Of a stretch of 28,209 bases of DNA, positions 7,225 to 28,052 are shown in pieces. The notes under the pieces were generated by a model, which saw nothing but the letters and a program-made list of their open reading frames with translations, ran no database searches and was not told the origin of the DNA. Positions within the stretch are counted from its first letter, which is position 1. The number at the start of each line of letters is the position of its first letter. The stretch is from Bacteroidia bacterium (GTDB taxonomy: Bacteria; Bacteroidota; Bacteroidia; AKYH767-A; OLB10), in assembly GCA_044341715.1 (NCBI GenBank), contig JBIIRF010000001.1, forward strand, positions 1 to 28,209, read 5' to 3'. The translations under genes and the position numbers were made by a program.

Positions 7225-7330
7225 AGGAGGGGCTTAATCTCCGGGAATGCAAGTGGTAGGTTGTCCCGGACAAGAATGAAAACGAAAATACCGTTTTGTC
7301 ATTCATGGTTTCAGGAAAAGCGGGGAACTT

Positions 7331-8212: not shown

Positions 8213-8236
8213 TTCCCGATGAGGATCAATTTCATC

Positions 8237-8244
8237 CAAATATA
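8237..8244 (-). promoter_or_regulatory. Sigma70 -7 element (TATATTTG) for the fructosamine kinase
   Basis: Exact TAnnTTTG match 24 nt upstream of the ATG at 8212. Confidence 0.5.
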
Positions 8245-8285
8245 GTAACAATGTTATTGCCTGTTTCATTATATTAGCTTTCGAT

Positions 8286-10335: not shown

Positions 10336-10365
10336 TTTGCGGGTGTTGATATATTGCTATATTTG
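10336..10365 (+). promoter_or_regulatory. Sigma70 promoter for the amidase gene
   Basis: TTTG-N18-TATATTTG, 28 nt upstream of the ATG at 10394. Confidence 0.6.
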
Positions 10366-10393
10366 TCAGATCACCCTTTAGACTAAATTATCT

Positions 10394-11203: not shown

Positions 11204-11236
11204 TTTTCGGTAATACGTAACCGTTAGCCAACCATT

Positions 11237-12610
11237 TTATTTCCCAACTCCGTATTCGCTGAGAATCCAGGCGAGTGCGGCCATGCTTGCTGCTCCAAGC
11301 TCGAGTTCGCGTTTGTTGATTTTGTCAAACGTATCCGTCTCGGCATGGTGTACATCAAAATACCGTTGTGAATCGGGACTGAATCCAATCAGCAATGTGC
11401 CTTGCTTTTCCATGTGATTGATATCTGCTCCTCCATATCCCGGACGCCAGTCGCGTAATAAATACGGATACAACATTTCCTGATGTTTCATGATACCCTG
11501 CATCATCAGTGAATCGCCTTTGAATGTAAATCCGCGCGGTGTAAATCCACCGGCATCACTTTCAATAGCGGCGATATGTTTGCGGCCCGACTTTGCTGCT
11601 TCCTCTGCGTACTTCGCTCCACCACGTCCTCCGTTTTCTTCATTCATAAATGCTACGCAGCGAATGGTCCGTTTCGGTCGCAAGCCAAGTGCTTTCATTA
11701 CACGTATCACTTCCATCGATTGCACCACACCGGCGCCATCATCATGTGATCCATCACCTGTATCCCATGCGTCGAGGTGTCCGCCTACTACAATGACTTC
11801 ATTCGGAAATTCAGTGCCGGTAATTTCTGCAATGACATTGTACGATAAGGTATCAGGCAATGTACTGCATGACTGACGAAAACCGACTTTCGTTCCCGGC
11901 TCTATTTTAAGCGTCTTGCTGAGTAATTCTGCACCGCGTGTACTGATCGCACAGGCCGGAATTTTTGTGATCGCTGAATCATATCCCATCGCACCGGTAT
12001 GCGGATTATCATCGAGTGAGAGTGTCATAGAACGAACAATCACTCCAATGGCACCTAGTTTAGCCGCACGCATGGCCGTTCCCCAGCGATACTTGGCCGC
12101 TTCACCATACGCTTCAAACGTATTGATGAACTCCGGCTTCATCGGATGGTTCATGAAAACAATATTTCCCTTGATCCGCTCTGTGCCGATTTTTTCCATC
12201 TCTTCCCAGTCACGTACCTCGACAACATTACCCGAAATACCGGAAGGAGGAGAGGCAATACTTCCACCCAGTGCACAAATACGCAATGGAGTTTTATTGC
12301 CTTTGGCTTCGATCCATGCTTCTTCTTTTCCGCCACGTACCCAATGAGGAACCATGACATCCTGCAGAAGAACAGAGTCGGCACCCAGTTTCTTTAATTC
12401 CATGCGGACATAATCTACAGCCTGCGCTGCTTCTTTCGAGCCACTCAGTCTTCCGCCAATACGGTTGCTGAGATAATCGAGCCAGGAATAAGATTTACCG
12501 TTGTTCAGAATGTCATCGTAAATTCGACGAATAGTGAGCGAATCTGTTGTTTGAGCTTTCGCAACCGAAGCAAACAAGCAGAGCGCGGCAATGCAGGAGC
12601 AGATTTTCAT
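11237..12610 (-). CDS. M28 family peptidase with PA domain (carboxypeptidase Q-like), secreted
   Basis: Signal peptide ending AKA|Q and zinc-ligand motifs GGHLDAWD, DDGAG, EENG, ESD and HHAETD. Confidence 0.92.
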   Translation of the reverse strand: MKICSCIAALCLFASVAKAQTTDSLTIRRIYDDILNNGKSYSWLDYLSNRIGGRLSGSKEAAQAVDYVRMELKKLGADSVLLQDVMVPHWVRGGKEEAWIEAKGNKTPLRICALGGSIASPPSGISGNVVEVRDWEEMEKIGTERIKGNIVFMNHPMKPEFINTFEAYGEAAKYRWGTAMRAAKLGAIGVIVRSMTLSLDDNPHTGAMGYDSAITKIPACAISTRGAELLSKTLKIEPGTKVGFRQSCSTLPDTLSYNVIAEITGTEFPNEVIVVGGHLDAWDTGDGSHDDGAGVVQSMEVIRVMKALGLRPKRTIRCVAFMNEENGGRGGAKYAEEAAKSGRKHIAAIESDAGGFTPRGFTFKGDSLMMQGIMKHQEMLYPYLLRDWRPGYGGADINHMEKQGTLLIGFSPDSQRYFDVHHAETDTFDKINKRELELGAASMAALAWILSEYGVGK

Positions 12611-12641
12611 AGAGAGACATGGCAGAATGGCTACCGTCCCT

Positions 12642-12649
12642 CAAAAATA
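12642..12649 (-). promoter_or_regulatory. Candidate -7 element (TATTTTTG) for the M28 peptidase
   Basis: TAnnTTTG match 31 nt upstream of the ATG. No properly spaced -33 element. Confidence 0.3.
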
Positions 12650-12665
12650 AATCTTTTCAGCAAAC

Positions 12666-13754
12666 TCAGGCTTTTACTGCACGATCATATAATCGACCAC
12701 CCATCCGACCGTATAACAAAGCCAGCCAGGACATGCTCAGTGTATTCATTGTCAGCATTCCAAGACAAACCGACAGAATAATAAAACTATTCATATCAAT
12801 CTTCGGAAAAAGAATGGCGATACCAACGTACATGAGATTAAATCCGGCAATCATCACGGTTGTCATGCGCTGACCGAATCCTTGTCCAACCATCATATGA
12901 TGCACATGGTTGCGATCGGGATGAAATGGTGAGTAGCCGGTGATGATTCGAATGACCGATACACGCAGCACATCGTACAATGGTACAAACAGCACCGCAG
13001 CAATGAGCGCAGGAGTAAGTGCAGGTACATCTGAAACGCCATGCGTAAAATGCTGGAACAAGGCAATCGCTTGTACAGAGAGTAAAAATCCAAGTACCAG
13101 TGAACCGGTATCTCCCATAAATATTTTAGCAGGATGGAAATTATAAATCAGGAATCCGAACACAGCGCCACAAATACTGAATGACAACATCGCCATTGTA
13201 ATATCACCGGCTTGCAGGAACAGAATTCCAAAGATCATACTCGACATCAACATCAGACTACCCGCAAGACCATCCAGACCGTCAATCAGGTTCAGTGCAT
13301 TGGTCACAGCAATGATGAATACAATCGTCACCATCCACGATACCGCATCCGGCAATTCACCAATACCACAGAATCCATACAAACTTTCGATGCGGAAACC
13401 GGCAAGGATCACCAGAATACTCGCCACAAACTGTAACACGAGTTTACGCGATGGTTTCAAGTCGATCAGATCGTCGAAGAATCCGGTGAAGAATAACAAC
13501 ACCATGCCTGCAACCAACTGCGCTGCGTTATGGCCGGGCATATCACCTACGAATGCGAGAAAACTGACAGCAATACCGGCGAATATAGAGATACCTCCCA
13601 TGGTAGGGATGTTCTCCTTATGACGTTTCCGGTCATCTGTCTTCTCAAATAAATTCCACTTCGCACACACTCTTATCCACGCAGGAATAAGAACCGTTGT
13701 CGTCAACATCGCAGCAATGCTGCTCATAATAATTAATAAAGAATTCGAAAGCAT
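12666..13754 (-). CDS. wecA: WecA/TagO-like undecaprenyl-phosphate GlcNAc-1-phosphate transferase (MraY family)
   Basis: PTMGGI, GFFDDLIDL, NALNLIDGLDG, IFMGDTGS and HVHHM; polytopic membrane protein. Confidence 0.92.
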   Translation of the reverse strand: MLSNSLLIIMSSIAAMLTTTVLIPAWIRVCAKWNLFEKTDDRKRHKENIPTMGGISIFAGIAVSFLAFVGDMPGHNAAQLVAGMVLLFFTGFFDDLIDLKPSRKLVLQFVASILVILAGFRIESLYGFCGIGELPDAVSWMVTIVFIIAVTNALNLIDGLDGLAGSLMLMSSMIFGILFLQAGDITMAMLSFSICGAVFGFLIYNFHPAKIFMGDTGSLVLGFLLSVQAIALFQHFTHGVSDVPALTPALIAAVLFVPLYDVLRVSVIRIITGYSPFHPDRNHVHHMMVGQGFGQRMTTVMIAGFNLMYVGIAILFPKIDMNSFIILSVCLGMLTMNTLSMSWLALLYGRMGGRLYDRAVKA

Positions 13755-13762
13755 GATCCCAA

Positions 13763-15844
13763 TTATTGTTTCTCTTTTCTAATAATATGTACTTCTACTC
13801 TTCTGTTCCGTTGTTTTCCTTCGTCGGAGACATTGTCGCGGATCGGCATATTTTCACCGTAGGCGACAGTTGTAATACGTTCTTCAGGAAGTCCCTTTTT
13901 CATGAAGATGGCTTTCACCACATCGGCTCTCGATTGGGAGAGATGCATGTTGAATGGTGCGTCTCCTTCGCTGTCGGTATGTCCTGTGATCACCAGCATC
14001 ATCGAATTGTTTTCCAGCAATGAATCCAGCGCCGGTTCAATGATGTCGAGCTTATACAAGCCATGGACTTCTGCACTTCCTGTTTTAAATTCTATATTTC
14101 CAATATGCTCTGCGGATGAAGTTCCTGCTTCTGCAATACTTTTCTCCGTAGCGCAACCATTATTTTCTTTTGATCCTGCTACCATCGGACACTGATCATC
14201 GGTATCAGGGATGCCGTCTTTATCTGTGTCGGGACAACCACCTGTTCCGGGTTCTCCTTTCATGTAAGGACATTTATCCTGGCTGTCTGTGATTCCGTCA
14301 CCATCCGCATCGGGCATAGTTACTGTAGTTGGAACGGATGTTTCTTCCTCAGGTTTCAAATCAGGGAGTCCCGCAGTAAGATTTTTACCATTCCCTTCCG
14401 GACGCAATTCAGGAACAGCAACTTTCACTTTGGCTACGTTCTTTCTTGGCACCAATAATGTGATAGCAGATTTATCAGTTTCCAGCTCATCCGGAATTTC
14501 ACGGACAGGTATAGAAGCAGATTTGATCGCTTTTGTTGTAACAGGTTGTGGTTTATTTACCACCGGCATTGTTACGGGTGATACTTTTCGTATTGGCGCT
14601 AACGTTATATTCTCTGCTGGTGCAGCAGGTGCAGGTTTCGCAGCCGCTTTCGGAGCTGTACCCGCCGGAGTAGCTGGTTTAGCAGGAGCCGGTTTGGTCA
14701 CCGGTTTTCCTACAGGTTTAGCTGCCGGTGCAGGAGTACTTCCTGTTGGTTTTCCGGTTTCCGGTTTTTTCGTTTCTGCAGGCTGGCTTTGTACCGGTGT
14801 AGAATTCGACGATGTTACCGGAACTTTTGAGGCAGTAGATGACTTTTTATCGTCCTTCTTCGCTTCCTTCGCCGGCTTCTGCTTTTTCTTTTCTTCTTCT
14901 TTTTTCGGACGTGCTTTCGGAATATAGGTCAGGGAAATTTCGAAGGCTCCGGGTCCGCCTGTAGCTCCGGAGATATTGATATCATAACTGATACCGGCCA
15001 TGAAACTGTTCCATTGGTATCCGGTGTAGAGTGCGATAGCATCATTATTGCGGAAGATGATTCCTCCTTCGAGGTTGTTACGGTCTTCCATCGGGAGACG
15101 TATCATCACACTGCTGATAAACTCCTGTGCAAACTGCTGCTTTGAAAACTGCACTGCAGGAGTGATCGTCCAGTCGTTTTTCATCACAAAACCGGCTCCC
15201 GCATTGGCCGTAATTTTTCGCGGAATAAAATTGTTCTGCTCGATATAACTTTCTTTCGGCTGATTGAGGTGTTGTACAGAAATTCCGGCAAATGGGAATA
15301 CACTGTTCTTTCCCTTTTTACCGTATGTCCAGAGGAAACCCAAGCCAAAATCAGGTCGTGTAAGTTTGGTATAGCTGAATGATTCGCTTGTAGGATTAGA
15401 CGGATCAAAACCATTGTCGGGTGTGTACTGATCATCAAAGGTCATCTTCGATGGATCAAAACTTTTCTGAATAAATCCGATTTGTAATCCGGAGGCGAGC
15501 ATGTGTCGTCCGAATGCATGGCGATAACTGAGTTGTCCGTTCAGGAACATTTGTCGCATTCCTGATTCGCCGGCGGTATTATTGACAATGTTTGCACCGA
15601 AGCCAACTTTGCTGACTTGTTTATCAAAGAAAACGCCTTCGGTCTTGAACGGACTCATCACACTCGACCATTGATTCCGGTATAACATAGTTAAGCGGAT
15701 ATGCTCTACGTTATGTCCGCTCGCCGCAGGGTTGTACCAGGTTGGAATCCGATGTGCCTGCGTGAAGTGAGGATCCTGCGCATAGCCTATCATCCCCACA
15801 AGGAGGAGAAGGAATAAACCGATGATGGAATATTGTCTGCGCAT
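13763..15844 (-). CDS. PorP/SprF family T9SS outer-membrane barrel fused to a K/P/A-rich linker, TSP3-like repeats and an OmpA C-terminal domain
   Basis: QDPHFTQ...WYNPAASG...YRNQWS N-terminus; barrel ending FEISLTYIP; linker of about 200 aa; DADGDGITDSQDKCP/DTDKDGIPDTDDQCP; GHTDSEG...LSQSRA...YGE...NRRVE. Confidence 0.9.
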   Translation of the reverse strand: MRRQYSIIGLFLLLLVGMIGYAQDPHFTQAHRIPTWYNPAASGHNVEHIRLTMLYRNQWSSVMSPFKTEGVFFDKQVSKVGFGANIVNNTAGESGMRQMFLNGQLSYRHAFGRHMLASGLQIGFIQKSFDPSKMTFDDQYTPDNGFDPSNPTSESFSYTKLTRPDFGLGFLWTYGKKGKNSVFPFAGISVQHLNQPKESYIEQNNFIPRKITANAGAGFVMKNDWTITPAVQFSKQQFAQEFISSVMIRLPMEDRNNLEGGIIFRNNDAIALYTGYQWNSFMAGISYDINISGATGGPGAFEISLTYIPKARPKKEEEKKKQKPAKEAKKDDKKSSTASKVPVTSSNSTPVQSQPAETKKPETGKPTGSTPAPAAKPVGKPVTKPAPAKPATPAGTAPKAAAKPAPAAPAENITLAPIRKVSPVTMPVVNKPQPVTTKAIKSASIPVREIPDELETDKSAITLLVPRKNVAKVKVAVPELRPEGNGKNLTAGLPDLKPEEETSVPTTVTMPDADGDGITDSQDKCPYMKGEPGTGGCPDTDKDGIPDTDDQCPMVAGSKENNGCATEKSIAEAGTSSAEHIGNIEFKTGSAEVHGLYKLDIIEPALDSLLENNSMMLVITGHTDSEGDAPFNMHLSQSRADVVKAIFMKKGLPEERITTVAYGENMPIRDNVSDEGKQRNRRVEVHIIRKEKQ

Positions 15845-18792
15845 TATTTAATGACCGTGATTGGTCCGTTTAATTCCTGTGATTGATTTTCCTGATTGCT
15901 GATTTTAATCCGGTAGAGATAGGTGCCGTTTTGTACGGTGACACCATTCACTGTTCCATCCCATTCGGGGCGTGCACTGTCGGTGGTATAGATCAAGGTT
16001 CCCCATTGATCATAAATCCGCATTTCTTCGAGACGGAATTGCTCGCCACGTACACGGAACACATCATTTTTACCATCTCCATTAGGCGTAAATGTGGTAG
16101 GCACGAATGCAGGGAGATTAATACCGATGTACACTGTTTTTATAAGTGTATCTGTACAACCGAGTGCATTCGCTGTAATTAGTGTTACTGTATAATTTCC
16201 CTCCAGCGGATAGGTAAACTGCGGATCAATCTGCTGTGATGTATTTCCGGGGATTGTAGTATCTCCGAAAATCCAGTAAACAGTAGCGGGATTTATAGTT
16301 GTGCAATTAAAGGTAGTTGTGAATTGTCCGCTCTGTGAACTTACATTGTAGGTAAATGTAGCAGCCGGAATTGCAAACACATTGACATTTACATCCAAAC
16401 GCGCCGGAGAAATACAGCCAAAGCCGTTCATCGCTTCCACGTAATAAGTCGTGTTGGTTGTTAGTGCTGGTGTAGTGTATGAAAGTGATGATGCCAGTAA
16501 ATTACCTGCAGTGTATTCATCGTACCATTTATAAGTGAGACCGGGTTCTGGAACGACACTCAGTTGCACTGCATTTCCTTTACATACTGAAGTATCAGCA
16601 GCCTGCGGAACATCCGGATTGCGATACACTTTTATCAGCGTAGAATCGGAGTACATCCAATTACCACCCTGGAAAACGGCGACATAATACCAACCGCTAT
16701 CTACCGCTACATACTGCGATCCCGTAGCGCCGGTAACCGGAAGTCCTTCGTAGTACCATTGATTCCCCGTTGGAAAAACAGAACTTAATACCACACTTTC
16801 TCCTTCACAAAAACTGACAGGACCCAGTGCCGTAATAATGTTTGAACTATTAATCAGCGTAACAGTAACTGCGGCTGATGATGATGTACATCCATTTGCA
16901 TTGGTGGTTGCTACAGTATAGGTTCCTCCTGTTGTAACATTGAGCGTACTACCGGTGATACCGTTCGACCAGGTATAAGCTGATCCGCCGGATGCGGTTA
17001 GTGTTAAAGTATCACCCTGAATCAACATTACTGCTCCGGAGGGTGTAACGGAAGGCGTAACGGTTGAATAAACTGCAATGCTTTGTACGGTTGATTGATC
17101 TGTACAGCCACCTGTTCCGGTCACGGTTACAGAGTAGTTTCCTTGTCCAACTGTTATACTTTGTGTATTGGCTCCATTCGACCATAGCCATGCACTTCCT
17201 GCAGATGCAGTGAGGACCGTAGTTTTTCCCGGACAAACAGTATCCGTTGATGCAGTAATAGTTGCTACAGGGGCTGCCTGTACCGTAATACTAATCGGTG
17301 CTGAACTTCCCACACAACCATTGCTGTTAGTTACTGATACCGTAAATGAGCCTGCAGTATTTACCACGATCGACTGAGCAGTTGAGCCATTCGACCAGCT
17401 ATAAGCAGTACCTGTGGTTGCTGTAAGTGTAATAGAAGCGCCATCACAAATTGCTGTTCCTGCGCTGCTGGTAATTGTCGGACTAAACGACGGATATACG
17501 GTAACGTTAAGTGTATTGGAGCTTGCTGTCGCACCCGAAGCATCAAAGGCGATTGCAGTCAATGTATGATTCCCTTGTGTCAATCCGTTTACGGTTACGT
17601 TACCGTTCGCGGAAGTTCCAAGGGTTTGTCCGTTCTCGAGAATAGTATAATTGTACAATCCTGCAGGAGAAATGGTAAAGGAAGCGGGAGCACCGGCACA
17701 AATTGCACTGCCACCGGAAATACTCAGTGTTAATGTAGTTGTAGAAATAGCAGTCACCCGACGAACAGTATGATTACCATTATCACCCACCCATAAATTT
17801 CTTCCTGAGCGGTTATAGGCAATTCCTGTCGGCATTTTGAACTTCGCTGCGATTCCATTGCCATCAACTGCTCCCTGCTGACCACTCGCTCCCACATAGG
17901 TAGAAACGGTAGCAGTTGTCAGATTAATTTTTCGAATTGTATTGGTAATGACATCGGCCACAAAAAGATTATTCAATGTATCTGCTGCAACTGCTGAAGG
18001 ATAGTTAAACGAAGCAGAAAGTGCAGGACCATTCACATCACCCGGAATTCCATTACCGGCAATCGTTGAAACTGTTCCCACCGGAGTCATCATACGGATC
18101 TGACAATTCCATTCGTCGGTGATAATCAGATTTCCGTTTGACAACATCGTCAGTCCATACGGATGATTAAATGTTGCTGCTGTTCCTGTACCATTCGCAT
18201 TGCCGGAGACAAAAACTGTTCCCGCCACGGTAGTCACCTGACCGGCGTTCAGTTTACGAATGGTATGTGTATTATAATCTGAAATATAAATCGTACTTCC
18301 ATCGCGTGTTACTGCAATGCCTGCAGGAAATCCAAAACGGGCAGTAGCGGCAGGACCATTTGTTGTACCAAACACACCGGTACCGGCAAGTGTAGTCACA
18401 TTCCCCGTTGCATCGATTTGACGTACTTTATAGTTTTTTGTATCGGCTACATAGAGATTTCCCAGTGTATCGATCGCGATACCCCAGGGCTCATTAAAAG
18501 AAGCATTCAATCCCTGACCATCGGTACTTCCTGCCACACCGCTGCCGGCAAAAGTTGAAACCACACCCGAAGCAGAAATTTTCCGGATACGATGATTCAA
18601 CCGATCGGCCACATAAACGTTTCCGTTTTTATCCGCCACCAATGAGTGCGGCTCATTGAATCGTGCTGCAGTACCTGTTCCATCCGTTGATCCTGTACTA
18701 CCTGCCAAACCGGCAATAGTCACCACTTGCTGAGCAAAAGCATTGCCCGCAGCAGTCAATATCAGGAACAGAATGAGTACTCTTTTCATCAT
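15844..18792 (-). CDS. T9SS type-B cargo: six NHL repeats, about six Ig-like modules, a PKD domain and a gliding-motility-associated (CHU_C) C-terminal domain
   Basis: Signal peptide ending FA|Q; six AG...G...A.F..P.G repeats; WSNG Ig modules; WIFGD (PKD); FTPNGDGKND...WDGT...GTYLY CTD. Confidence 0.92.
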   Translation of the reverse strand: MMKRVLILFLILTAAGNAFAQQVVTIAGLAGSTGSTDGTGTAARFNEPHSLVADKNGNVYVADRLNHRIRKISASGVVSTFAGSGVAGSTDGQGLNASFNEPWGIAIDTLGNLYVADTKNYKVRQIDATGNVTTLAGTGVFGTTNGPAATARFGFPAGIAVTRDGSTIYISDYNTHTIRKLNAGQVTTVAGTVFVSGNANGTGTAATFNHPYGLTMLSNGNLIITDEWNCQIRMMTPVGTVSTIAGNGIPGDVNGPALSASFNYPSAVAADTLNNLFVADVITNTIRKINLTTATVSTYVGASGQQGAVDGNGIAAKFKMPTGIAYNRSGRNLWVGDNGNHTVRRVTAISTTTLTLSISGGSAICAGAPASFTISPAGLYNYTILENGQTLGTSANGNVTVNGLTQGNHTLTAIAFDASGATASSNTLNVTVYPSFSPTITSSAGTAICDGASITLTATTGTAYSWSNGSTAQSIVVNTAGSFTVSVTNSNGCVGSSAPISITVQAAPVATITASTDTVCPGKTTVLTASAGSAWLWSNGANTQSITVGQGNYSVTVTGTGGCTDQSTVQSIAVYSTVTPSVTPSGAVMLIQGDTLTLTASGGSAYTWSNGITGSTLNVTTGGTYTVATTNANGCTSSSAAVTVTLINSSNIITALGPVSFCEGESVVLSSVFPTGNQWYYEGLPVTGATGSQYVAVDSGWYYVAVFQGGNWMYSDSTLIKVYRNPDVPQAADTSVCKGNAVQLSVVPEPGLTYKWYDEYTAGNLLASSLSYTTPALTTNTTYYVEAMNGFGCISPARLDVNVNVFAIPAATFTYNVSSQSGQFTTTFNCTTINPATVYWIFGDTTIPGNTSQQIDPQFTYPLEGNYTVTLITANALGCTDTLIKTVYIGINLPAFVPTTFTPNGDGKNDVFRVRGEQFRLEEMRIYDQWGTLIYTTDSARPEWDGTVNGVTVQNGTYLYRIKISNQENQSQELNGPITVIK
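16961..17397 (-). repeat. Three diverged tandem Ig-like modules with a 213-bp period
   Basis: The motif cc(a/g)ttcgacca (W-S-N-G on the minus strand) occurs at 16961, 17174 and 17387, each 213 bp apart. Confidence 0.8.
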
Positions 18793-19982
18793 GCAGCCTC
18801 GACAGTTTGTTTAGGAAGGTTCAATTCAATCTGCTCCACCTGACGCTCCGACATTTCATTCAGCAGTTCACGATACGAAGGATCCTGACCGGTGAATGCC
18901 GCTGCGTAGAGCGAAGTAATCCGCTTCCAGGTATAATATCTGCGACCATATTGTTCCATCTCCGCTCCCATGCGTTGTTGCTCGATTGGCGTTAAGCGGT
19001 TCAATTGCTCGAGTAATTCTGATTCATTGTTAAAATAACGGGCGCGGTGATTGGTGGTCTCGCGGTTATACGAAACACCATAGCTGATGATTGGTAAACC
19101 CAGACACATTGCTTCCACCAGACTCGGGTTGGTTCCGCCTGCACTATGTCCGTGCACATAGACGGCAGCGTTAGAACGGATTTCATTCAACTGATCCTGA
19201 TCGTAAATCGGATCCAGCAGATGAATGTTCGGATAGTTGCTATACTTCGCACGCAATTCCATTCCGTAAGGACCATGATTCCACAGACCCACAATCACCA
19301 GATTCTTTTCCGGAGCACGACTAAACGCATCCAGAATCATGTGAATATTATTCTCCGGTTCAATGCGGCTCACATTAAAAGCATAAGGCTCCTGCAGAAA
19401 AGGATACTTCGCAAGTACGGCATCCGTCAATGGAAGTTTCTTCACGTGATCGCCACCGTATTCAATCAGCCATGTATTTTCACAATGATATTCCCGCTCC
19501 ACATACTGCTGAATGATTTTATTATCCGTAATCACTTTATCCGCAAAAGCCACCGCCAGTTTTTCACTCCAGCCTAGAACTTTCCGCGAGATCCAGTTCC
19601 ACTTCGGACGTTTCCATTCTTGTCCATCGATGTTCACCAGAATCGGCTTCTTCGTAAACATCTTCAGGAAAGGAAGCAATACCGCTCCCGAAACACCCAA
19701 CAACAACAGCACATCGTTGCGACGCACTGCATGCAGGATAGAAAGAATATCATAAGGAATACTCTGATACCCGTTCGCATTCAGCGGCAGGTATTCGAGT
19801 TTTGCACCATTGTAATTTTCGAGACGTTTTCCCGGCTTACCGAAATACTTGCTACTGCAGTACACGGTCATATCAAAATCATTCGAGAGATTATTCACCA
19901 GGTGATGAGCCAGCGTTTCAAAGCCGCCGTAACGGGCCGGTAATCCTGTTGTTCCAATCACTGCTACACGGATCTTCTTCAT
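18789..19982 (-). CDS. GT4 glycosyltransferase with DUF1972-like N-terminus (WchF/RgpA-like, putative rhamnosyltransferase)
   Basis: AVIGTTGLPARYGGFET, NIDGQEWKRPKW, SRIEPENN and HGHSAGGTNPSLVEAM. ATGA overlap with the next gene. Confidence 0.9.
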   Translation of the reverse strand: MKKIRVAVIGTTGLPARYGGFETLAHHLVNNLSNDFDMTVYCSSKYFGKPGKRLENYNGAKLEYLPLNANGYQSIPYDILSILHAVRRNDVLLLLGVSGAVLLPFLKMFTKKPILVNIDGQEWKRPKWNWISRKVLGWSEKLAVAFADKVITDNKIIQQYVEREYHCENTWLIEYGGDHVKKLPLTDAVLAKYPFLQEPYAFNVSRIEPENNIHMILDAFSRAPEKNLVIVGLWNHGPYGMELRAKYSNYPNIHLLDPIYDQDQLNEIRSNAAVYVHGHSAGGTNPSLVEAMCLGLPIISYGVSYNRETTNHRARYFNNESELLEQLNRLTPIEQQRMGAEMEQYGRRYYTWKRITSLYAAAFTGQDPSYRELLNEMSERQVEQIELNLPKQTVEAA

Positions 19983-20058
19983 TCTGCAAATGGGTTTTCT
20001 TTGCTTGTTAGAATTTACAGGCATTTGAGACGGCCTGCGATACTAAAGTTGTACGGTT

Positions 20059-20259: not shown

Positions 20260-21345
20260 TTAGAAATTTTTCAGGATCGATTCCGTGAATTTCCGGTTAC
20301 TAAACTGCTTCGATGTTTCCTTTGCACCTTCACTCAGGGCCGATAAAAATCCGGGGTTTTCTGCGAGGTATTGCAGACGAAAATCGAGTGTTGCTTCGTC
20401 ACGTACATCGATGGTAAAACCATTCACCGAACCTTTCACAATTTCAGCCGGACCACCTACCGGAGGAGCAATCACAGGCACACCGTAACACATCGCTTCC
20501 AGGATGGTCATACCGAATGTTTCAATGCATTGTCCGGGATTGGTCAGATTCACCACCAGCGAAGCAGCACGGTAAAACGGATCCAGGTTTTTCTGCACCG
20601 GATACCATGTAAGGTTTGCGGGAATTACCTCGCGGGAGAAATAAAGTTCAATATCTTCCGGCTGTGCATTCAGCACCAAATCGAAATGGAGTCCGGGATG
20701 GCGACGCGCAAGGGCCACAAACTCCGGAATTCCTTTATAATCTTTTAACGAACAAACCATGAGCACCCTGAACTTTTCTGTTTGTCCGGGGAGATAGGAG
20801 AACTGACCCGCATTCGCTACAAATTCTTCCGGCAGGGCGTTGTACACCACCTGGCTGTTAACTCCATGAATACGTTCTTCCCGCAGGAGATAATCGGACA
20901 CATACAAGACGGTATCGGCAGTATAAGCAGCAACAGTGCGTAGGAATTTTTTCAAAGCTGCAGGACGAATATAACTCTCATGCACATGATAAATCACTTT
21001 CTTGCCCATCATCGCACCGGCAATCGCTGCACCGAAAGGAAGAATGGTATTGATATAAAATGTGACATCCTTCTTCCGGTATCTCCAGAGCTGAAAAAAG
21101 AGAAATACCTGACTAAATGTAAAGGCCAGCAACCGCATCAATGTATTCGGAAAAAACCGATACGGAAAACTCACAAAGGGAGCATCCACGGAATTCAGAA
21201 AACCTTCCTTCTTGCCGCTGGTATGGATCACTACCGAATGTCCCGACTGTTGTAATCCCTTTAACGCTTGCGTAAATACCAGAGGACTACCACTGAAATC
21301 ATTCAGCAGATGAATTGCAACAATCGTATTTTTCTTCTCCGACAT
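20260..21345 (-). CDS. GT4 family glycosyltransferase
   Basis: SLKDYKGI and ETFGMTILEAMCYGVPVI (EX7E motif). Confidence 0.92.
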   Translation of the reverse strand: MSEKKNTIVAIHLLNDFSGSPLVFTQALKGLQQSGHSVVIHTSGKKEGFLNSVDAPFVSFPYRFFPNTLMRLLAFTFSQVFLFFQLWRYRKKDVTFYINTILPFGAAIAGAMMGKKVIYHVHESYIRPAALKKFLRTVAAYTADTVLYVSDYLLREERIHGVNSQVVYNALPEEFVANAGQFSYLPGQTEKFRVLMVCSLKDYKGIPEFVALARRHPGLHFDLVLNAQPEDIELYFSREVIPANLTWYPVQKNLDPFYRAASLVVNLTNPGQCIETFGMTILEAMCYGVPVIAPPVGGPAEIVKGSVNGFTIDVRDEATLDFRLQYLAENPGFLSALSEGAKETSKQFSNRKFTESILKNF

Positions 21346-21349
21346 TTTA

Positions 21350-22606
21350 TCAGCCGGCTTTACGGGTCAGGTTTTCATAGAGATCTTTCAGGCGTTCACC
21401 TTTCAGATCCCAATCAAATCGTTCCTTGAAGGTACGACGTGCACCCTCCGACAACTTCACGTATAAACGGGTATTGTCGTGCAGGAGACGCAATGCCTCT
21501 GCAAACTTGGTAACGCTCGTATTATAACGGCTATACGGTACCGAAATACCACAATCCTTATTTACAAACTCTCCCGGACCTTCATTGCGGAAACATACCA
21601 CCGGTAAACCGTACGACAATGCCTCTGCAACTACCATTCCCGCACCTTCATGACTCGGGAACAGGAATACATCCGACTCGTTGTAGAGTTTTTTATAATC
21701 ACTGCGATGCAACCAGGCGATGAACGTAACACATTCTGCCACCTCCATTTCTTCGGCCAGGTTTTCGAGATACTTTTTATACGGACCATCGCCCACTAAA
21801 ACCAGACGCACAAACGGACGCTGATGCACTGGAAGCTGATGATAAAACCGCGCAAAGGAACGAATGGTAATATCAAAACCTTTCAGCGGAACAAATCTAC
21901 CACTCGATAAAATGGTAAATCCTTGTCCCTTTCTTCCTTCAGGTAACTCTGTTGGTGCTTCGGTACTCACACTCGACATATGCAGCACTTTATCCCGCGA
22001 TACATCCAGTACACGTTCCACTCCTGAATTCATTGCAATAACTGTGTCTGCATGAGAAACTGTCTGACGCAGCAATGGATCTATCTTCCAGAAATATTTT
22101 TTCAATCCCCACTTCATCTCCTCCAGCAAATACGTCTTCCAGCCATACACGTGCAATACATAATCCTTAGGAATACGCGGATGGTGACCAATCGGGCCCC
22201 ATACAAAGGGTTTGCGCAAACGCCAGAGCATAGAAGGTGTCCAGTCGTTATGGAAATTCAGGTTATGCACTATATCAAACTCCAGTTTGTTCTTGCGCAC
22301 AAAACGCGGCATGAAAATCTGCCAGAGGTAATAATACAACAACGCACCACGACCGCCCTTTTTCCAGAAGCGAGCCCAGTAGGGTAAGTCATAATAGACA
22401 AATTTCACATTGGCATAACAGGGATTCGGATGCTCCGCCATGTATCGTTCGATCGGTCCACGGGTATTTTCGCGGGTGATCGCAATTACTTTATTGAAAC
22501 GTGCGATCTGCAGGATAAAATTCCATCCCATGCCATCTTCCGAACCATGATAAGGATTCACAGCATAAGCACTCACCAATACGGTATTTTCTTTTCTATT
22601 CTCCAT
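21350..22606 (-). CDS. GT4 family glycosyltransferase
   Basis: SAYAVNPYHGSEDGMGW, GRFVPLKG and PSHEGAGMVVAEALSYG. The start is placed at MENRKE, after the upstream TAG. Confidence 0.92.
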   Translation of the reverse strand: MENRKENTVLVSAYAVNPYHGSEDGMGWNFILQIARFNKVIAITRENTRGPIERYMAEHPNPCYANVKFVYYDLPYWARFWKKGGRGALLYYYLWQIFMPRFVRKNKLEFDIVHNLNFHNDWTPSMLWRLRKPFVWGPIGHHPRIPKDYVLHVYGWKTYLLEEMKWGLKKYFWKIDPLLRQTVSHADTVIAMNSGVERVLDVSRDKVLHMSSVSTEAPTELPEGRKGQGFTILSSGRFVPLKGFDITIRSFARFYHQLPVHQRPFVRLVLVGDGPYKKYLENLAEEMEVAECVTFIAWLHRSDYKKLYNESDVFLFPSHEGAGMVVAEALSYGLPVVCFRNEGPGEFVNKDCGISVPYSRYNTSVTKFAEALRLLHDNTRLYVKLSEGARRTFKERFDWDLKGERLKDLYENLTRKAG

Positions 22607-22617
22607 CTTCTCTTTCA

Positions 22618-23349
22618 CTAAGCTACACATCCTTGCTGATGCGTAGTATTGGATTGTTCAGTTCTGTATTTTATTACTCTCGCCGGCATACCACCTACTA
22701 CGGCATTGGCAGGCATACTTTTCGTCACCACTGCACCCGCAGCTATCACACAATTGTCACCGATAGTTACTCCATCCAAAATCGTCACCTTCGCGCCGAT
22801 CCAGCAGTTTTTACCGATAACAATTCCTTTACGTTCTGTACCCTGCAAACGAATCAGCTGCTGTTCATCGAAGAAGCGATGATTCTCCGGATGACAACTG
22901 AGGTAGGGACCAATAATACAATCATCGCCGATCTCGAGTCCGCCTGCACCACCGAGGTGTGCATACTCACCCAGTCCTACATGATGACCGATACGGATAT
23001 ACTTTCCCGGATCATTCAGCGAGAAAGAAACCTTGAGATAGGAATGACTGCCGATCCAGCTATAATCACCGATAGACAATCCTTCACGACCCCAGGCGGT
23101 AATGCTCACATCGTTTCCTAACTGCACCGCCTTACCGAACTGCGCCGATGAAGTGCCACTGATAGAAACACGTTTACCGGCAAACAGCAACAACGACCGT
23201 TTCGCCCGCAGGAATTGCAGACCCCGTAACCAGGCGCAGACCTTCCCCCATAAAAATCCGAACAGGACACCCTCTTTTACAGCGGGGTCCAGTTCGAACG
23301 AAGGATTTTTCTTTCGTCCCAGATGGGTGATAATCGTTCGCAGCAGCAT
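22618..23349 (-). CDS. Hexapeptide-repeat O-acyltransferase (LbetaH)
   Basis: IGDDCIIG, IGKNCWIGAKVTILDGVTIGDNCVIAAGAVV. The start overlaps the upstream stop (TAATG). Confidence 0.92.
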   Translation of the reverse strand: MLLRTIITHLGRKKNPSFELDPAVKEGVLFGFLWGKVCAWLRGLQFLRAKRSLLLFAGKRVSISGTSSAQFGKAVQLGNDVSITAWGREGLSIGDYSWIGSHSYLKVSFSLNDPGKYIRIGHHVGLGEYAHLGGAGGLEIGDDCIIGPYLSCHPENHRFFDEQQLIRLQGTERKGIVIGKNCWIGAKVTILDGVTIGDNCVIAAGAVVTKSMPANAVVGGMPARVIKYRTEQSNTTHQQGCVA

Positions 23350-24104
23350 TACATTTTCCAGAAAGTAGTCTGACAAACGAAGAGACCCATCGGTGCAAAA
23401 CCGCTGAAGCGATGCATTTCTTTATCCTTCAATAATTCAGCACCTACCCAGTTCACCGGGTTATCGCTGTTATCGAGGATCAGCCAGCCACCGGGCTTTA
23501 CTTTATTCATCAACACCTGAATGCAATCATTCCGGCGTGTAAAATCATTCATGCAATCTACCAGCACCATATCGAGACTATGATCCGGAATCAATGCCAT
23601 ATCGCCGATCGCTGCTTCTCCCTGCATCACTTTCATGCGACTATTAGTTGGATGAAAACGCATAGGCTGCTCATGCATGGCACACTGCACATACGTTGCC
23701 CAGTCCTGACTATGTTCATAGGTAGTCACCTTTGTTTCCTTCTCCAGAAACCAGAGTGTAGAATTTCCTCCACCTGCTTCCACTACTGACATACCCGGCT
23801 TAACGATGCCTTCCAGAAAACGAATAGCATCCAACACGATAAACGGAACCGGCTTCTGCAGAATTGGCGACTTACGCGTATCGAGCCATGTTTTGAAAAC
23901 ATACGGCAAACGCATAACGCTATACATCGAAGGACGATGACCCTCATAATCGGTGAAGCGCAACGAAGCCTTTAACGAAGTATGTTGACCTTCATCTGTC
24001 ATCCACTCGAGTGTAGTGCGGCCCAGTAACTGGTCGATAACCGGCGTTGTGTACTGCGCGGTAACATTAGATTTGTTAGGAGGAGTAAGTTGTGAACGAT
24101 TCAT
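23349..24104 (-). CDS. Class I SAM-dependent methyltransferase-like protein
   Basis: VVEAGGGNSTLWF (motif I), DMVLVD and LKPGG-like VKPGGWLILDN. Confidence 0.8.
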   Translation of the reverse strand: MNRSQLTPPNKSNVTAQYTTPVIDQLLGRTTLEWMTDEGQHTSLKASLRFTDYEGHRPSMYSVMRLPYVFKTWLDTRKSPILQKPVPFIVLDAIRFLEGIVKPGMSVVEAGGGNSTLWFLEKETKVTTYEHSQDWATYVQCAMHEQPMRFHPTNSRMKVMQGEAAIGDMALIPDHSLDMVLVDCMNDFTRRNDCIQVLMNKVKPGGWLILDNSDNPVNWVGAELLKDKEMHRFSGFAPMGLFVCQTTFWKM

Positions 24105-24128: not shown

Positions 24129-25433
24129 TTAAATAACGGCGGAAACACATTCATTCATTACACGACGAATGGTATCATCCAGATTAATATTATTGATTAC
24201 AAGATATTGCTGTTTACTGCCTGAATTACCCAGCTCATTGAACAGCTGCGTATATTCCGTGGTGAGACTGGTGATATCCTCCTGCGACAACTCCTGCTTG
24301 CGGCTGCGGATAATTTCCGGAGATGCAAAGAGAAATACATTCACCTGTGGTTTGAAGATGAAATGATAACACCATTTCATAAACCCTTTTGGTAAAACGA
24401 TATTGGAACGACGGGAATCAATGATGAAATCGAAATAATAACGATCGTACAATACAGTATAACCGCGCAATGTATAACGGAAATAGATGTAATACTGTCC
24501 GACGAGATAATCGAGGTAATAGTAAGTAAAGCGAAACAGCGAACTGATCACACTTTTATTTGTTCCCTGACGCGGAAGTTTTTCACGGGTACGCTTCTCG
24601 GCCTCTGATTTTCCATGCACCACACTCGAAAGAATCGGCAGCAAGGAAGGACGATGACGCAGTACCACAATTTTCTGACGGTACTTCTTCTGCAAGGTCT
24701 GGCGCACTTCTTCGATGATGGTCGATTTACCGGCACCATCCACACCACTGAAAGTAACAGTGATACCACGCTGGTGCATAAAATCATTTATAACATCGGT
24801 AATATACCGCGCCTTGTTGTACAGAAAATGAAATGCTTTATTGTTGCCATGACCATATACATAACCCAGGATCTTTTTTGTGAATCGTGAGTTTACTTCG
24901 TACAGTTCATCCAGTACATTGATATTCACCTTGTACTTTCCTGTTATATGAGCAAAGATCTCCGCACGCTGCTCAAACGAGAAGGTACTGAAATAGGCTC
25001 TATAACGTTCAGGCACATCCGAACCATTGATCAGATAAAAAAGCAGGATATATTCGAAGTTATGACGATGAGAAGCCATCTTCAGACCATCCGCTGTTTC
25101 AATCGCATGATCCAGGATTTCTTTTGTCTGCAGATAAATCGTTCCCTTCCGGTCGAAGCGGAAAATCAAATCGATTTCCAGGTACGAGCCATCGTTAAAC
25201 AACAGACTCACATAGGTCGCGAATGATTTTTTCGCCAGGTGAATGCGTTTGATATCCGGGCCCTTTCCGATGATATCCAGAAACAGGCGACGCTGATCGG
25301 CTGCGATGAGCATATCCACGTCCGAGCTCTCCGGAATTTCTGCCACAGAACCGTGAATGAACTTCAACAGTGCATACTCCTGAGACTTGATAGCCTCAAA
25401 ATAATAGCGGAGATATGCCTGACGATGGTTCAT
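24129..25433 (-). CDS. Fusion of a nucleotidyltransferase-like N-terminal domain and a thymidylate-kinase-like P-loop domain
   Basis: PESSDVDML (DxD, Pol-beta-like), then FSGVDGAGKST (P-loop) and VLYDRYYFD (TMK DRY motif). The start is coupled to the upstream stop (TAATG at 25435-25431); the 25649 start overlaps the kinase. Confidence 0.75.
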   Translation of the reverse strand: MNHRQAYLRYYFEAIKSQEYALLKFIHGSVAEIPESSDVDMLIAADQRRLFLDIIGKGPDIKRIHLAKKSFATYVSLLFNDGSYLEIDLIFRFDRKGTIYLQTKEILDHAIETADGLKMASHRHNFEYILLFYLINGSDVPERYRAYFSTFSFEQRAEIFAHITGKYKVNINVLDELYEVNSRFTKKILGYVYGHGNNKAFHFLYNKARYITDVINDFMHQRGITVTFSGVDGAGKSTIIEEVRQTLQKKYRQKIVVLRHRPSLLPILSSVVHGKSEAEKRTREKLPRQGTNKSVISSLFRFTYYYLDYLVGQYYIYFRYTLRGYTVLYDRYYFDFIIDSRRSNIVLPKGFMKWCYHFIFKPQVNVFLFASPEIIRSRKQELSQEDITSLTTEYTQLFNELGNSGSKQQYLVINNINLDDTIRRVMNECVSAVI

Positions 25434-26794
25434 TACTTCTTGCTGGCATTCGGAATTGAACTCAGACAATCGCGAATAGCGGCTGTCCACGCATCGACCA
25501 TCCAGTGACTCTGCATGAGCAATTCGCGCTCGCCGAGATACTGACGGAGATAATGACTTACGGTGAAGAGCAGATAGAGACGATGATGAAGTTCCAGGTT
25601 GATACCGTACTTGCTGATCATCTGTTCTGCCAGGGCTGATTGACTCCATTGGTGAATGGTTGATTTAACAGCATTATAATTTCTGCGTTGCTGCAGGATG
25701 GTGCTTTGGTAAGTGAAATGAAATACATCGAACATCATCGGGATGCCGTTGCGGGCCATCTCCCAGTCGTACACGTACAAACGTTGTTCGTCGCAATACA
25801 TATTCCACGGTGTAAAATCTCCGTGTGAAACAGAAACTGGAACAATGTCGGTCTCGGAAATACGGTTATAGAGATCCTGCAGCAATGCCACGAGATCAAG
25901 TGTTTTTTCCTTGCTGAGGTTATTGATAAAAACGGTTTCCTGTCCGAGGAAGCTGATATTATTTTTAATGGTTTCCCAGGCTGCGGTATCGCTGATTTTC
26001 TTTCTATCATTGCTCATCGCATACAATTCCGCCATCGCACTCAGGTGAATCGCATTGATCCGGTCAGCAGGAATCACAATAGCCGGTTTCACATTGCTGA
26101 GACGGGTACGACCATTGATTCGCTTTGAAGCCTTCGGCAGACTCAGCGCAGTAAAATCGTATTGATTGAGAGTATTCACCATTTCGTATTCGTTTTCTAC
26201 GAGTGTATTTGCTTCCGGAGTAAGGGGGATTTTGATAAACCCTGTTGTTTCCTTCTCGTTGTGGATCTCAACTACCAGTTTGCGGGTCGCCCCTCTCGTA
26301 CCGGTGAAGAAGGACGCTGCCTCTCCGATCATGATACCACAGTTCATTTGTACTCTTTCGAACAGCTTTTGTTGCACTCTGAAAGTCCCTGAGGCCAGAC
26401 GATGAGCCTGACCGAGACGGAAAGCAATTCTGGTAATCGTTTTATAGAGCCGGGCTTTCACCGAAGCGGCATTGTAGAGGGAGAGATGTCCCGCTGTCAT
26501 ACCAGCACTCGGATAAAACCAGCGGATGGTCCCATCGGGATTATTGATAAAATCAAAACTGAGCCAGCGTTCCTCCCCAATGGAGCTGCTGTACAAAACA
26601 AAATCATCGTTACGCAAATCAACCACAAACGAAGGACGATCTTCTGCCTCCTGCACTTTCTGCAAAGGGGAAGGGATACGTTCCTGATCGCCGAACACAC
26701 GACCTGCAGGATCAATTAAATAAAATTCTTCTTCCGGAGCAAAGAGCTCACGTAAGATGAGCAGGTCGGTAAGATATACCGTTTGGTTTTTCAT
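25433..26794 (-). CDS. APH/choline-kinase-like phosphotransferase with an N-terminal extension
   Basis: FIKIP (ATP-binding Lys), ENEYEM, VSHGDFTPWNM and VYDWE. Confidence 0.82.
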   Translation of the reverse strand: MKNQTVYLTDLLILRELFAPEEEFYLIDPAGRVFGDQERIPSPLQKVQEAEDRPSFVVDLRNDDFVLYSSSIGEERWLSFDFINNPDGTIRWFYPSAGMTAGHLSLYNAASVKARLYKTITRIAFRLGQAHRLASGTFRVQQKLFERVQMNCGIMIGEAASFFTGTRGATRKLVVEIHNEKETTGFIKIPLTPEANTLVENEYEMVNTLNQYDFTALSLPKASKRINGRTRLSNVKPAIVIPADRINAIHLSAMAELYAMSNDRKKISDTAAWETIKNNISFLGQETVFINNLSKEKTLDLVALLQDLYNRISETDIVPVSVSHGDFTPWNMYCDEQRLYVYDWEMARNGIPMMFDVFHFTYQSTILQQRRNYNAVKSTIHQWSQSALAEQMISKYGINLELHHRLYLLFTVSHYLRQYLGERELLMQSHWMVDAWTAAIRDCLSSIPNASKK

Positions 26795-28052
26795 GGTTGG
26801 TTGCCCCTCTTATACGACGGCTGTCGCTTAAGGTTTCTGAGGAAGCAGTAAAAACCAGGAAGAGATAAAATAAAATTCCGTAGTTCGTTTCACCAAAAAT
26901 TCCGAACTCGGTAAGAGAGTTCACGAGCAAGGGGATCAGGATCAGCCAGACGGTAAGACGGTATTTTTTATCTGCCACCCTACGCAATGTCCATAGAAAC
27001 ACAGTGAGCTGCAACAGAACGATCGAAAGTCCAACCAGACCAAGACCCAGCAACACCTGCATAAACGTATTGTGCGTCATCGCCCCGGCATACGCATTCA
27101 GCGACTCAAACTTATCCGCATAATCGATCCGCATATAACCATAACCCAGCCATGGTTCACGCGGGAAATTATACGTCAGCAGATCCTTCCAGAAAGGCAA
27201 ACGACCGGTAAACGTAAACAGCTCCTGCAACTGATCCTGCTTCACAAAGAACGACCATCCCGCCAACGGCACCAGCGCCAACACCGAAGCAGCCATAAAC
27301 GTACGCTGCGTTTTACTCCCGGTATGTAAGGCATACACCATCAACACCGCCACCAGCGCAATAAACGACGAACGAGAACCGGTCAACAACAACATCTGAA
27401 TCAACATCAGCAGATAAAGAATAATACTGATACGAATCTTTCCCTCCTTCACAATCAGCGGAAGAAAACAACTCACACCGATCACCAGCAACATACCCAG
27501 CTCATTCGGATTGATGATAAATCCACCCAGACGACTCACCGCCCCACCATGTGTCAGACGATAAAACTTATCCGGATCCACATACATACCAATCAGGAAG
27601 CCGATCCCATTCAGCAAAACGGCCGGCGCAATCACCTTATGCAAATCGAAATATCCACCCGGGTGACGATGACGATACATCCCCAACAAATGAATAAACA
27701 GCCAGGCAAAAACGAATCCCTCCGCATCCATCAGCCATTGCAAAACACTTTCCGAAAACGAACTGGTCCATAACAGCGACGCAGCCCCGAAGATCAGGTA
27801 GATTGCATAGAGCCAGATAGGCATCGGGTGTTTAATTGTATCCCCAAACCGGTGCTCCCTCCTCGACTCCAGGAAGATCGCCACCAGCAAGGTAACGGTC
27901 AGGAATATCCGCAAACCGGATTTAATTGCCTGCACCATCAACAGCGAATCAGACAACATAAAATACGAAACAATACGCAGCGCCAGCACCACCACCAGGA
28001 ACATCCTGAAAGCCTTTGCCGGTTCACGCATCCACGATTGCTGCTGCTTCAT
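26748..28052 (-). CDS. O-antigen ligase/polymerase family (Wzy_C/WaaL-like) membrane protein
   Basis: Polytopic protein with RLGG...NPNELG, LTGSRSS, TGRLPFW...P..GYG and THNTFMQ. Confidence 0.88.
   Translation of the reverse strand: MKQQQSWMREPAKAFRMFLVVVLALRIVSYFMLSDSLLMVQAIKSGLRIFLTVTLLVAIFLESRREHRFGDTIKHPMPIWLYAIYLIFGAASLLWTSSFSESVLQWLMDAEGFVFAWLFIHLLGMYRHRHPGGYFDLHKVIAPAVLLNGIGFLIGMYVDPDKFYRLTHGGAVSRLGGFIINPNELGMLLVIGVSCFLPLIVKEGKIRISIILYLLMLIQMLLLTGSRSSFIALVAVLMVYALHTGSKTQRTFMAASVLALVPLAGWSFFVKQDQLQELFTFTGRLPFWKDLLTYNFPREPWLGYGYMRIDYADKFESLNAYAGAMTHNTFMQVLLGLGLVGLSIVLLQLTVFLWTLRRVADKKYRLTVWLILIPLLVNSLTEFGIFGETNYGILFYLFLVFTASSETLSDSRRIRGATNHEKPNGISYRPAHLT

Follow-up and report, generated by a model that had tools for sequence, protein, structure and literature searches.

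What could a choline-kinase-like enzyme, followed at once by a protein that joins a nucleotidyltransferase (NTase)-like domain to a thymidylate kinase (TMK)-like domain, be doing among genes for polysaccharide assembly? The question is raised by a 28,209-nt stretch of DNA, referred to below as the window (Bacteroidia bacterium, assembly GCA_044341715.1, contig JBIIRF010000001.1, positions 1 to 28,209), where two such genes, named here A and B, lie on the minus strand beside a gene for a Wzy-like polymerase. As judged from the sequences of their homologues, A and B are the split form of one three-module enzyme consisting of a kinase, an NTase-like domain (N), and a second kinase (T). We consider it likely that the pair constitutes a phosphoryl-handling unit dedicated to an exopolysaccharide (EPS), and this unit probably makes or attaches a phosphate-containing group.

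Genes A and B as one unit

Gene A (25433-26794, minus strand) encodes 453 aa and gene B (24129-25433, minus strand) 434 aa. The listed open reading frame (ORF) of B is longer and begins at an upstream ATG at 25649; since 41 of 41 aligned B homologues begin at the position equivalent to MNHRQ/MNQR, the true start is the ATG at 25433-25431, within AAGTAATGAAC. There the stop codon TAA of A shares bases with the start codon of B in the string TAATG, so that the coupling of the two genes reported in the initial annotation is located at 25433. At its other end A overlaps the Wzy-like gene by 47 nt, and a gap of 24 nt separates B from the following methyltransferase gene. Neither transmembrane segments nor any membrane-binding feature were seen in A or B, and both proteins are predicted to be cytoplasmic.

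The active-site motifs named at the outset, HGDxxxxN, DWE, DxD, GVDGAGKS, and DRY, are all in place. In A they are found as HGDFTPWN (25802-25825) and DWE (25760-25768), and in B as DxD (D38/D40, 25314-25322), GVDGAGKS (G230-S237, 24723-24746), and DRY (D330-Y332, 24438-24446). Their residues are invariant in 46 homologues of A and 41 homologues of B that span 29-98% identity, and thus the motifs are not due to chance.

Genes homologous to B form 585 clusters (50% identity) at E<=1e-30 and match 478 species-level genomes, out of which 80 loci of species-representative genomes were surveyed. A and B are adjacent and separate in 33 of the 80 loci, with many junctions of the ATGA, TAATG, or 2-nt type, and in another 33 they are fused into a single ORF of 800-900 aa; one such fusion was confirmed end to end by profile comparison. 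Fusions also account for about two thirds of the best 150 B-matching cluster representatives. In the third arrangement (13/80 loci), A was not found adjoining B. Two of these contigs start at B, and the remaining loci of this type come mostly from Saprospiraceae. In one further locus, the fourteenth (L058), A is located about 7.8 kb upstream of B, at the head of the same locus. The possibility that A is dispensable was rejected, because each of the five searched genomes with no A at the locus has a full-length A at another place (E 1e-128 to 1e-150), in surroundings unrelated to the cassette.

In the fourth arrangement, the gene immediately after A encodes T alone, with a length of about 213 aa. 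These loci (L093-L109) at first seemed to lack N, as if the two kinases formed the core of the system. This reading was rejected, since nine of the long loci contain a divergent stand-alone N-like gene with the DxD and third Asp intact, positioned between the Wzy gene and a GT4 glycosyltransferase gene, 2.4-3.5 kb upstream. That A, N, and T are separable and yet retained together in at least four arrangements is strong evidence that all three serve one process. The functional coupling of the two genes that had been proposed for the window is supported far more strongly by fusions, synteny, and phyletic co-occurrence than by the window alone.

Domains of A and B

The kinase domain of A (residues 144-453) shows the bilobal fold of the APH/choline-ethanolamine kinase family (eukaryotic-like kinase, ELK, fold) and passes the gathering score of the Pfam APH model (PF01636) marginally, at 25.7 bits. 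Its top Foldseek match is LicA (4r7b, E 2.4e-7; identity about 15%), and the best structural matches in general are small-molecule kinases, with antibiotic kinases resembled as well; a sequence-profile search of the PDB with A gave nothing useful. The Brenner motif HxDxxxxN, H324-G-D326-F-T-P-W-N331, is invariant in the 46 homologues and present in the fused forms too. No variation was seen in D343-W-E345 and E202 either, and at least 90% of the sequences have K188; by position, K188 is inferred to be the beta-3 Lys and E202 the alpha-C Glu. Structural matches start at residue 144. The preceding extension (residues 1-143; 26366-26794, minus strand) carries a conserved INNPDGTIRW motif; its fold has no structural match, and an Atlas search with it gave nothing useful. 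Approximately the first 70 residues are absent from distant homologues, in which the NNPDG motif is still retained. The window contains a second APH-fold gene, at 7331-8368 (minus strand), which belongs to the fructosamine-kinase family (PF03881, E 2.8e-71), is unrelated to A, and is not part of the polysaccharide operon.

The N domain of B (residues 1-215; 24789-25433, minus strand) contains a conserved LLK, then SDxDhhI, then a third Asp. In the structure model of B (mean confidence, pLDDT, 87.7) it matches the pol-beta-type NTase alpha/beta fold, with MenT (the MenT1 toxin) and JHP933 as its relatives. The three carboxylates D38, D40, and D88 show no variation among 43 cassette-type sequences and also occur in a homologue from Agrobacterium. 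The hG[GS] motif that should precede the DxD is not conserved, positions 28-29 being occupied by GS, ES, AS, NA, PS, KD, and other pairs. By sequence, N passes no Pfam threshold (Polbeta 14.7 bits versus 26.9, E 0.036); PF14907 (NTP_transf_5) matches only 8 of the 43 members, with a best E of 2.7e-4; and LicD is absent from the Pfam matches even at E<=10. A sequence-profile search of the PDB with N yielded nothing useful, and an Atlas search yielded unnamed clusters, together with PF14907 at 0.83, which is a lead only. According to the model, N is therefore NTase-like at the level of the fold, as the initial annotation had it, with an atypical active-site entrance. It differs from the DUF1814/AbiEii/MenT, JHP933, and PF14907 proteins in being fused to a kinase, in the lack of a conserved G[GS], and in having no toxin-antitoxin context.

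The T domain (residues 216-434 and the stop codon; 24129-24788, minus strand) is a TMK-like P-loop kinase. The motifs G230-V-D232-G-A-G-K236-S, D330-R331-Y332, and R378-K379 of the basic LID are invariant in the 41 B homologues, and the P-loop, DRY, and RKxE LID align with those of Thermotoga maritima TMK. Differences from the thymidylate kinase family (PF02223) are the fusion to an NTase-like domain, an extra aromatic-rich insertion of about 40 residues, and invariant arginines, of which there are seven (R259, R261, R288, R301, R331, R342, and R378). A role of T as the housekeeping dTMP kinase was rejected: it scores 23.5 bits against the cut-off of 83.25 of the dTMP-kinase equivalog TIGR00041, through the P-loop only, and a separate full-length small tmk-like ORF is encoded on another contig of the same genome (C214). 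In the hidden Markov model alignment the TMK segment following DRY (...AYQG...) is replaced in T by ...IIDSRRSNI..., a hint of an acceptor other than dTMP. The Pfam APS_kinase model matches residues 222-255 of B only, at 17 bits versus a cut-off of 21.1. In TMK, the P-loop Asp contacts the 3'-OH of the nucleotide; its equivalent in T is the invariant D232, and the invariant arginines appear compatible with a polyanionic, nucleotide-like acceptor.

The exopolysaccharide cassette and its distribution

To define the surroundings of the module, the ORFs from all 80 loci were grouped into clusters, and these were then annotated. The first half of the resulting cassette runs (response regulator)-Wza-Wzc-MatE-type flippase-GT4-Wzy-A-B, where Wzc is a polysaccharide co-polymerase with a bacterial tyrosine (BY) kinase domain. 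B is followed by (methyltransferase)-acetyltransferase-GT4a-GT4b-DUF1972/Cps2T-like glycosyltransferase-(NHL cargo of type IX secretion, PorP-OmpA)-WecA-(response regulator or sigma-54 activator). By its gene content this is a Wzx/Wzy-dependent EPS locus. The position of the module within the cassette is fixed in all 80 loci, and so the assignment of the pair to a polysaccharide locus holds well beyond the window. Pfam and NCBIfam annotation of the neighbouring genes and the conserved loci revealed no nucleotide-sugar biosynthesis genes belonging to the cassette itself.

Which genes accompany the module was determined in 401 genomes sampled evenly from the class (the raw tallies include two unpublished genomes, G361 and G287, on which no claim rests). 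Intact B is present in 22 of the 401 genomes, and in 22 of these 22 an orthologue of GT4a is located within about 2 kb. GT4a itself is found in 24 genomes, the other two of which carry decayed remnants of the module at the same place. GT4a is thus the gene most tightly co-inherited with the module.

The module is also carried by plasmids. In Hymenobacter swuensis DY53, plasmid pHsw1 (299 kb, mobilizable) contains the whole cassette with a fused 823-aa module at 119580-144839, adjoining genes for a BLUF protein, a PAS sensor, a response regulator, and a sigma-54 activator; this setting suggests horizontal mobility and signal-controlled expression. Plasmid p1 of Agrobacterium leguminum has an EPS locus flanked by rfbA and rfbC at 400259-421140, with homologues of A, B, the acetyltransferase-like gene, GT4a, GT4b, and the DUF1972 glycosyltransferase, that is, a six-gene core. 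Its B homologue is recognized by hhalign with a probability of 99.8%, retains all motifs, and is adjoined by the homologues of GT4b and the DUF1972 glycosyltransferase; four genes away lies A, and the locus also encodes a CpsB-type tyrosine phosphatase.

In the window, all cassette genes described below are on the minus strand. The pair lies, as initially annotated, between wzy and the methyl- and acetyltransferase genes, which is evident from Pfam matches in the flanking ORFs. The Wzy-like polymerase (26748-28052; Wzy_C, 8.8e-15) is syntenic in 65/80 loci. The S-adenosylmethionine-dependent methyltransferase downstream of B (23349-24104; Methyltransf_24, 1.8e-6) occurs in 24/80 loci, all of the closest clade, and is a lineage-specific add-on; no relative of it was found by sequence in the PDB. 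The hexapeptide O-acetyltransferase (22618-23376; Hexapep, 2.8e-17; WbbJ/WcaF-like in NCBIfam) is present in 64/80 loci. It is followed by GT4a, a glycosyltransferase of GT-B fold (21350-22630; Glycos_transf_1, 2.3e-28), and by GT4b (20260-21345) and the DUF1972/Cps2T-like glycosyltransferase (18789-20024), both of which have Pfam and NCBIfam matches and are syntenic across Bacteroidota. A WecA-type initiating phosphoglycosyltransferase (12666-13754; Glycos_transf_4, 1.9e-41), syntenic in distant loci, closes the cassette.

A second fusion within the cassette, in which GT4a and GT4b share a single ORF of about 788 aa, occurs in 13 loci (L018, L026, L029, L037, L042, L043, L045, L046, L061, L069, L070, L073, and L079). 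Between the DUF1972 glycosyltransferase and WecA, the window has a type IX secretion cargo with NHL, Ig, PKD, and CHU_C domains and a PorP-OmpA fusion (13763-18792). This insertion is a feature of the window's clade, comprising about 24 of the 80 loci (L002-L025); a weaker NHL/PorP pair at shifted positions is seen in a few distant loci (e.g. L046, L053, L067, and L068), and in most other lineages the glycosyltransferase gene is directly followed by wecA.

Decay of the module

Unexpectedly, decayed remnants of the module were found directly upstream of GT4a, at 7239-9143 of locus L091 and 10357-12153 (minus strand) of locus L175. In one genome (G032) the motifs of A are intact and A is fused to an N domain with ExD in place of DxD and the third Asp changed to Asn, followed by a stub of T, truncated and with a degenerate P-loop. 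In another (G017) an A-N protein has lost every catalytic residue (HGA, NWE, and no DxD), and no T was detected anywhere in the genome with the query used.

Losses were also seen in the sister genera of the window's own family that were examined (G299, G225, and G520). The genes from Wzx through the DUF1972 glycosyltransferase are lost there, and an intact stand-alone N-like ORF of 245-263 aa with all three carboxylates gone is retained (L176, 9363-10100; L177, 9442-10197, minus strand; L178, 9332-10120, minus strand). It follows Wzc at a distance of 8-60 nt and precedes an NHL cargo-PorP-WecA-M28 block, which is syntenic with 11237-18792 of the window.

That the backbone enzymes can outlive the chemistry of the module speaks for a decoration and against an essential precursor. 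Of all the pieces the N fold persists most, which suggests that it has a second, non-catalytic role.

Proposed route to an activated phospho-donor

The explanation that we favour, with a probability of roughly one in three, is a cytoplasmic kinase-nucleotidyltransferase-kinase route to an activated phospho-donor for the EPS. In the first step, A would transfer phosphate from ATP to a hydroxyl group on a small alcohol or sugar, converting X to X-P. N would then condense X-P with NTP to form NDP-X, and T would add a phosphate to the nucleotide moiety, giving a donor of the 3'-phospho-NDP-X type, as in the CDP-phosphoramidate 3'-phosphate of the O-methyl phosphoramidate (MeOPN) pathway, in coenzyme A (CoA), and in 3'-phosphoadenosine 5'-phosphosulfate (PAPS). 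Finally, a co-inherited GT-B enzyme, possibly GT4a, would place the phospho-group on the undecaprenyl diphosphate (Und-PP)-linked repeat before flipping by Wzx, and the methyltransferase added in the window's clade may then methylate the product. The exact order of these four steps is tentative.

Several considerations led us to this route. Fusions or pairs of an NTase with a P-loop kinase make 3'-phospho-nucleotide donors in COASY, PAPS synthase, and Cj1416/Cj1415, that is, in the CoA, PAPS, and MeOPN cases; and T keeps the P-loop Asp and an Arg-rich site that would fit a polyanionic acceptor. COASY (phosphopantetheine adenylyltransferase-dephospho-CoA kinase, PPAT-DPCK) and PAPS synthase resemble B in that an NTase is fused to a P-loop kinase and nucleotidyl transfer precedes phosphorylation, and the CoA route further resembles the module in having a separate upstream kinase (PanK). 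An N+T-like pair handling phosphoryl or phosphonyl compounds elsewhere is hinted at by the phosphonate gene-cluster family GCF 540, in which a 'thymidylate kinase' and a PF14907 NTase flank the phosphoenolpyruvate (PEP) mutase (PMC8942020); this pair is possibly related to N and T.

The closest parallel in logic is the MeOPN pathway, in which Cj1415-1418 make CDP-phosphoramidate 3'-phosphate for the capsule of Campylobacter jejuni (PMC11800397). Its genes (Cj1418, Cj1417, Cj1416, and Cj1415) also lie within a surface-polysaccharide locus with methyltransferases nearby, and a kinase, a nucleotidyltransferase, and a P-loop kinase would in both systems lead to a 3'-phospho-NDP-activated phosphoryl donor. 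However, none of the folds is shared: the kinase Cj1418 is of the PEP-utilising type, the cytidylyltransferase Cj1416 of the Rossmann type, and Cj1415 a homologue of adenosine 5'-phosphosulfate (APS) kinase. In addition, MeOPN has the dedicated transferases Cj1421/1422, and no dedicated transferase was seen in this cassette. Only the logic is common to the two systems, not the enzyme families.

Two other systems were invoked when the pair was first described. LicA-LicC-LicD of Haemophilus and Streptococcus pneumoniae likewise combines an APH-fold kinase with an NTase-fold protein (LicD) and adds a phospho-substituent to a glycan. In contrast to it, the cassette has no LicC-type cytidylyltransferase, LicB transporter, or detectable LicD member, and the Lic system has no counterpart of T; the expected LicC/LicD-like partner failed to appear in Pfam/NCBIfam scans of the neighbouring genes and conserved loci. 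WbdD of E. coli O9a acts in ABC-transporter-dependent O-antigen synthesis and sets the chain length. It shares with this locus a eukaryotic-like kinase fold and a methyltransferase acting on polysaccharide in the cytoplasm, whereas synthesis here depends on Wzx/Wzy and the locus encodes a Wzc co-polymerase of its own, and the methyltransferase can be absent (it occurs in 24/80 loci only). The capping or length control of chains that had been suggested by analogy with WbdD is therefore unlikely.

Several observations weigh against the proposed route. Among the annotated genes of the cassette there is no dedicated phospho-transferase such as LicD, Stealth, or TagF, and GT4a is a candidate user of the donor from its co-inheritance alone. 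T resembles TMK far more than it does the 3'-kinases, which makes phosphate-to-diphosphate chemistry at least as likely. N has no canonical G[GS] motif and remains under every Pfam threshold, and neither of its structural relatives, MenT and JHP933, activates small molecules. Finally, catalytically dead N-like proteins persist in three lineages, a hint that the N fold may serve as a scaffold, whether in addition to catalysis or in its place.

Alternative explanations

The most novel form of the scheme is one that we regard as possible and hold with considerable reserve. Here an APH-fold kinase, a MenT/PF14907-like NTase, and a TMK-derived kinase would together either make a new activated phospho-donor (3'-phospho-NDP-X or a diphospho-ester) or build a phosphodiester on the lipid-linked repeat, and the NTase-like fold may double as an adaptor for Wzc or the assembly machinery, which would explain the kept dead copies; such a system would operate in hundreds of Bacteroidota species and some Alphaproteobacteria.

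The main rival is phosphorylation on the glycan itself. Here A would phosphorylate a sugar hydroxyl of the Und-PP-linked repeat, T would extend the monoester to a diphosphate, and N would build or cap a phosphodiester, so that no separate transferase is needed. Glycan kinases (WaaP, KdkA, WbdD, and POMK) and two-metal transferases of NTase fold (LicD/fukutin) provide precedents for the individual reactions. The module is indeed the sole phospho-transferase candidate in the cassette and is locked to particular glycosyltransferases, and so to a particular acceptor structure; T retains the Arg of the TMK DRY motif and the LID residues that are used in phosphate-to-phosphate transfer, and its many invariant arginines could bind an Und-PP-linked substrate. 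A kinase and an NTase-fold enzyme acting in turn on one phosphate are known as well, in PsmK/PsmN (PMC6993621). On the other hand, A finds its best structural matches among small-molecule kinases, A can sit far from the locus in unrelated genomic contexts, neither protein has a membrane-binding feature, and LicD is not even among the weak Pfam matches of N. Overall we hold this explanation to be rather unlikely.

Salvage synthesis of a nucleotide sugar was also considered. A would in that case be an anomeric sugar kinase similar to NahK, AmgK, methylthioribose (MTR) kinase, or maltokinase, N would make the NDP-sugar for GT4a, and T, which resembles a nucleoside monophosphate (NMP) kinase, would supply or recycle the nucleotide from NMP to NDP. 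The absence of nucleotide-sugar genes from the cassette and the strict co-inheritance of the module with GT4a agree with such a role. To our knowledge, however, the sugar-1-phosphate nucleotidyltransferases that have been described are Rossmann-like (RmlA/GlmU type) and not pol-beta-like as N is. A dedicated NMP kinase would not be required, and GT4a outlasts the decayed module in some genomes and so works without its product. We find this explanation improbable.

A regulatory module, in which A would be a protein kinase and N and T would modify or dock onto the assembly machinery, e.g. Wzc, and so control synthesis rather than take part in the chemistry, could account for the dead N-like proteins that immediately follow Wzc in the sister genera from which the glycosyltransferases are lost, and for the dead A-N proteins that persist beside GT4a. 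It is very doubtful in view of the position of the module among biosynthetic genes, the response regulator and the sigma-54 activator being found at the ends of the locus, of the invariance of all three active sites in cassette-type members, and of the BY-kinase domain that Wzc already has. The remaining proposal, a glycan-unrelated MenT/AbiE-like toxin or defence element or an inserted resistance kinase, is close to refuted and was rejected, because, despite the MenT1 toxin among the best structural matches of N and the resemblance of A to antibiotic kinases, PADLOC matched B at the P-loop level only (residues 226-252, best E 2.7e-5) and gave no match to A, no antitoxin partner is adjacent, the neighbours are glycan genes, the cassette position is fixed across the phylum and on an alphaproteobacterial plasmid, and the module co-occurs perfectly with GT4a.

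Implications for surface-glycan tailoring

Phosphocholine, MeOPN, glycerol phosphate, ribitol phosphate, and other substituents linked through phosphate govern the charge of surface glycans, their recognition by phages and the immune system, and their material properties, and we are aware of only a few biosynthetic routes to them. Homologues of A and B are labelled 'hypothetical', 'phosphotransferase', or 'thymidylate kinase' in databases, and text searches of the literature returned no characterised member and no paper naming DUF1972 together with thymidylate kinase. The module combines enzyme domains in a way for which no description was found, probably within the known theme of phospho-tailoring of surface glycans. 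With three well-defined active sites, it is available in cultured carriers, namely Hymenobacter swuensis DY53, Phnomibacter sp. MR, and Agrobacterium leguminum AT13. If the proposed function is true, the module would represent a previously undescribed route for decorating bacterial polysaccharides, and, if its chemistry is new, it would offer a tool for glycoengineering and a marker of a conserved type of environmental EPS.

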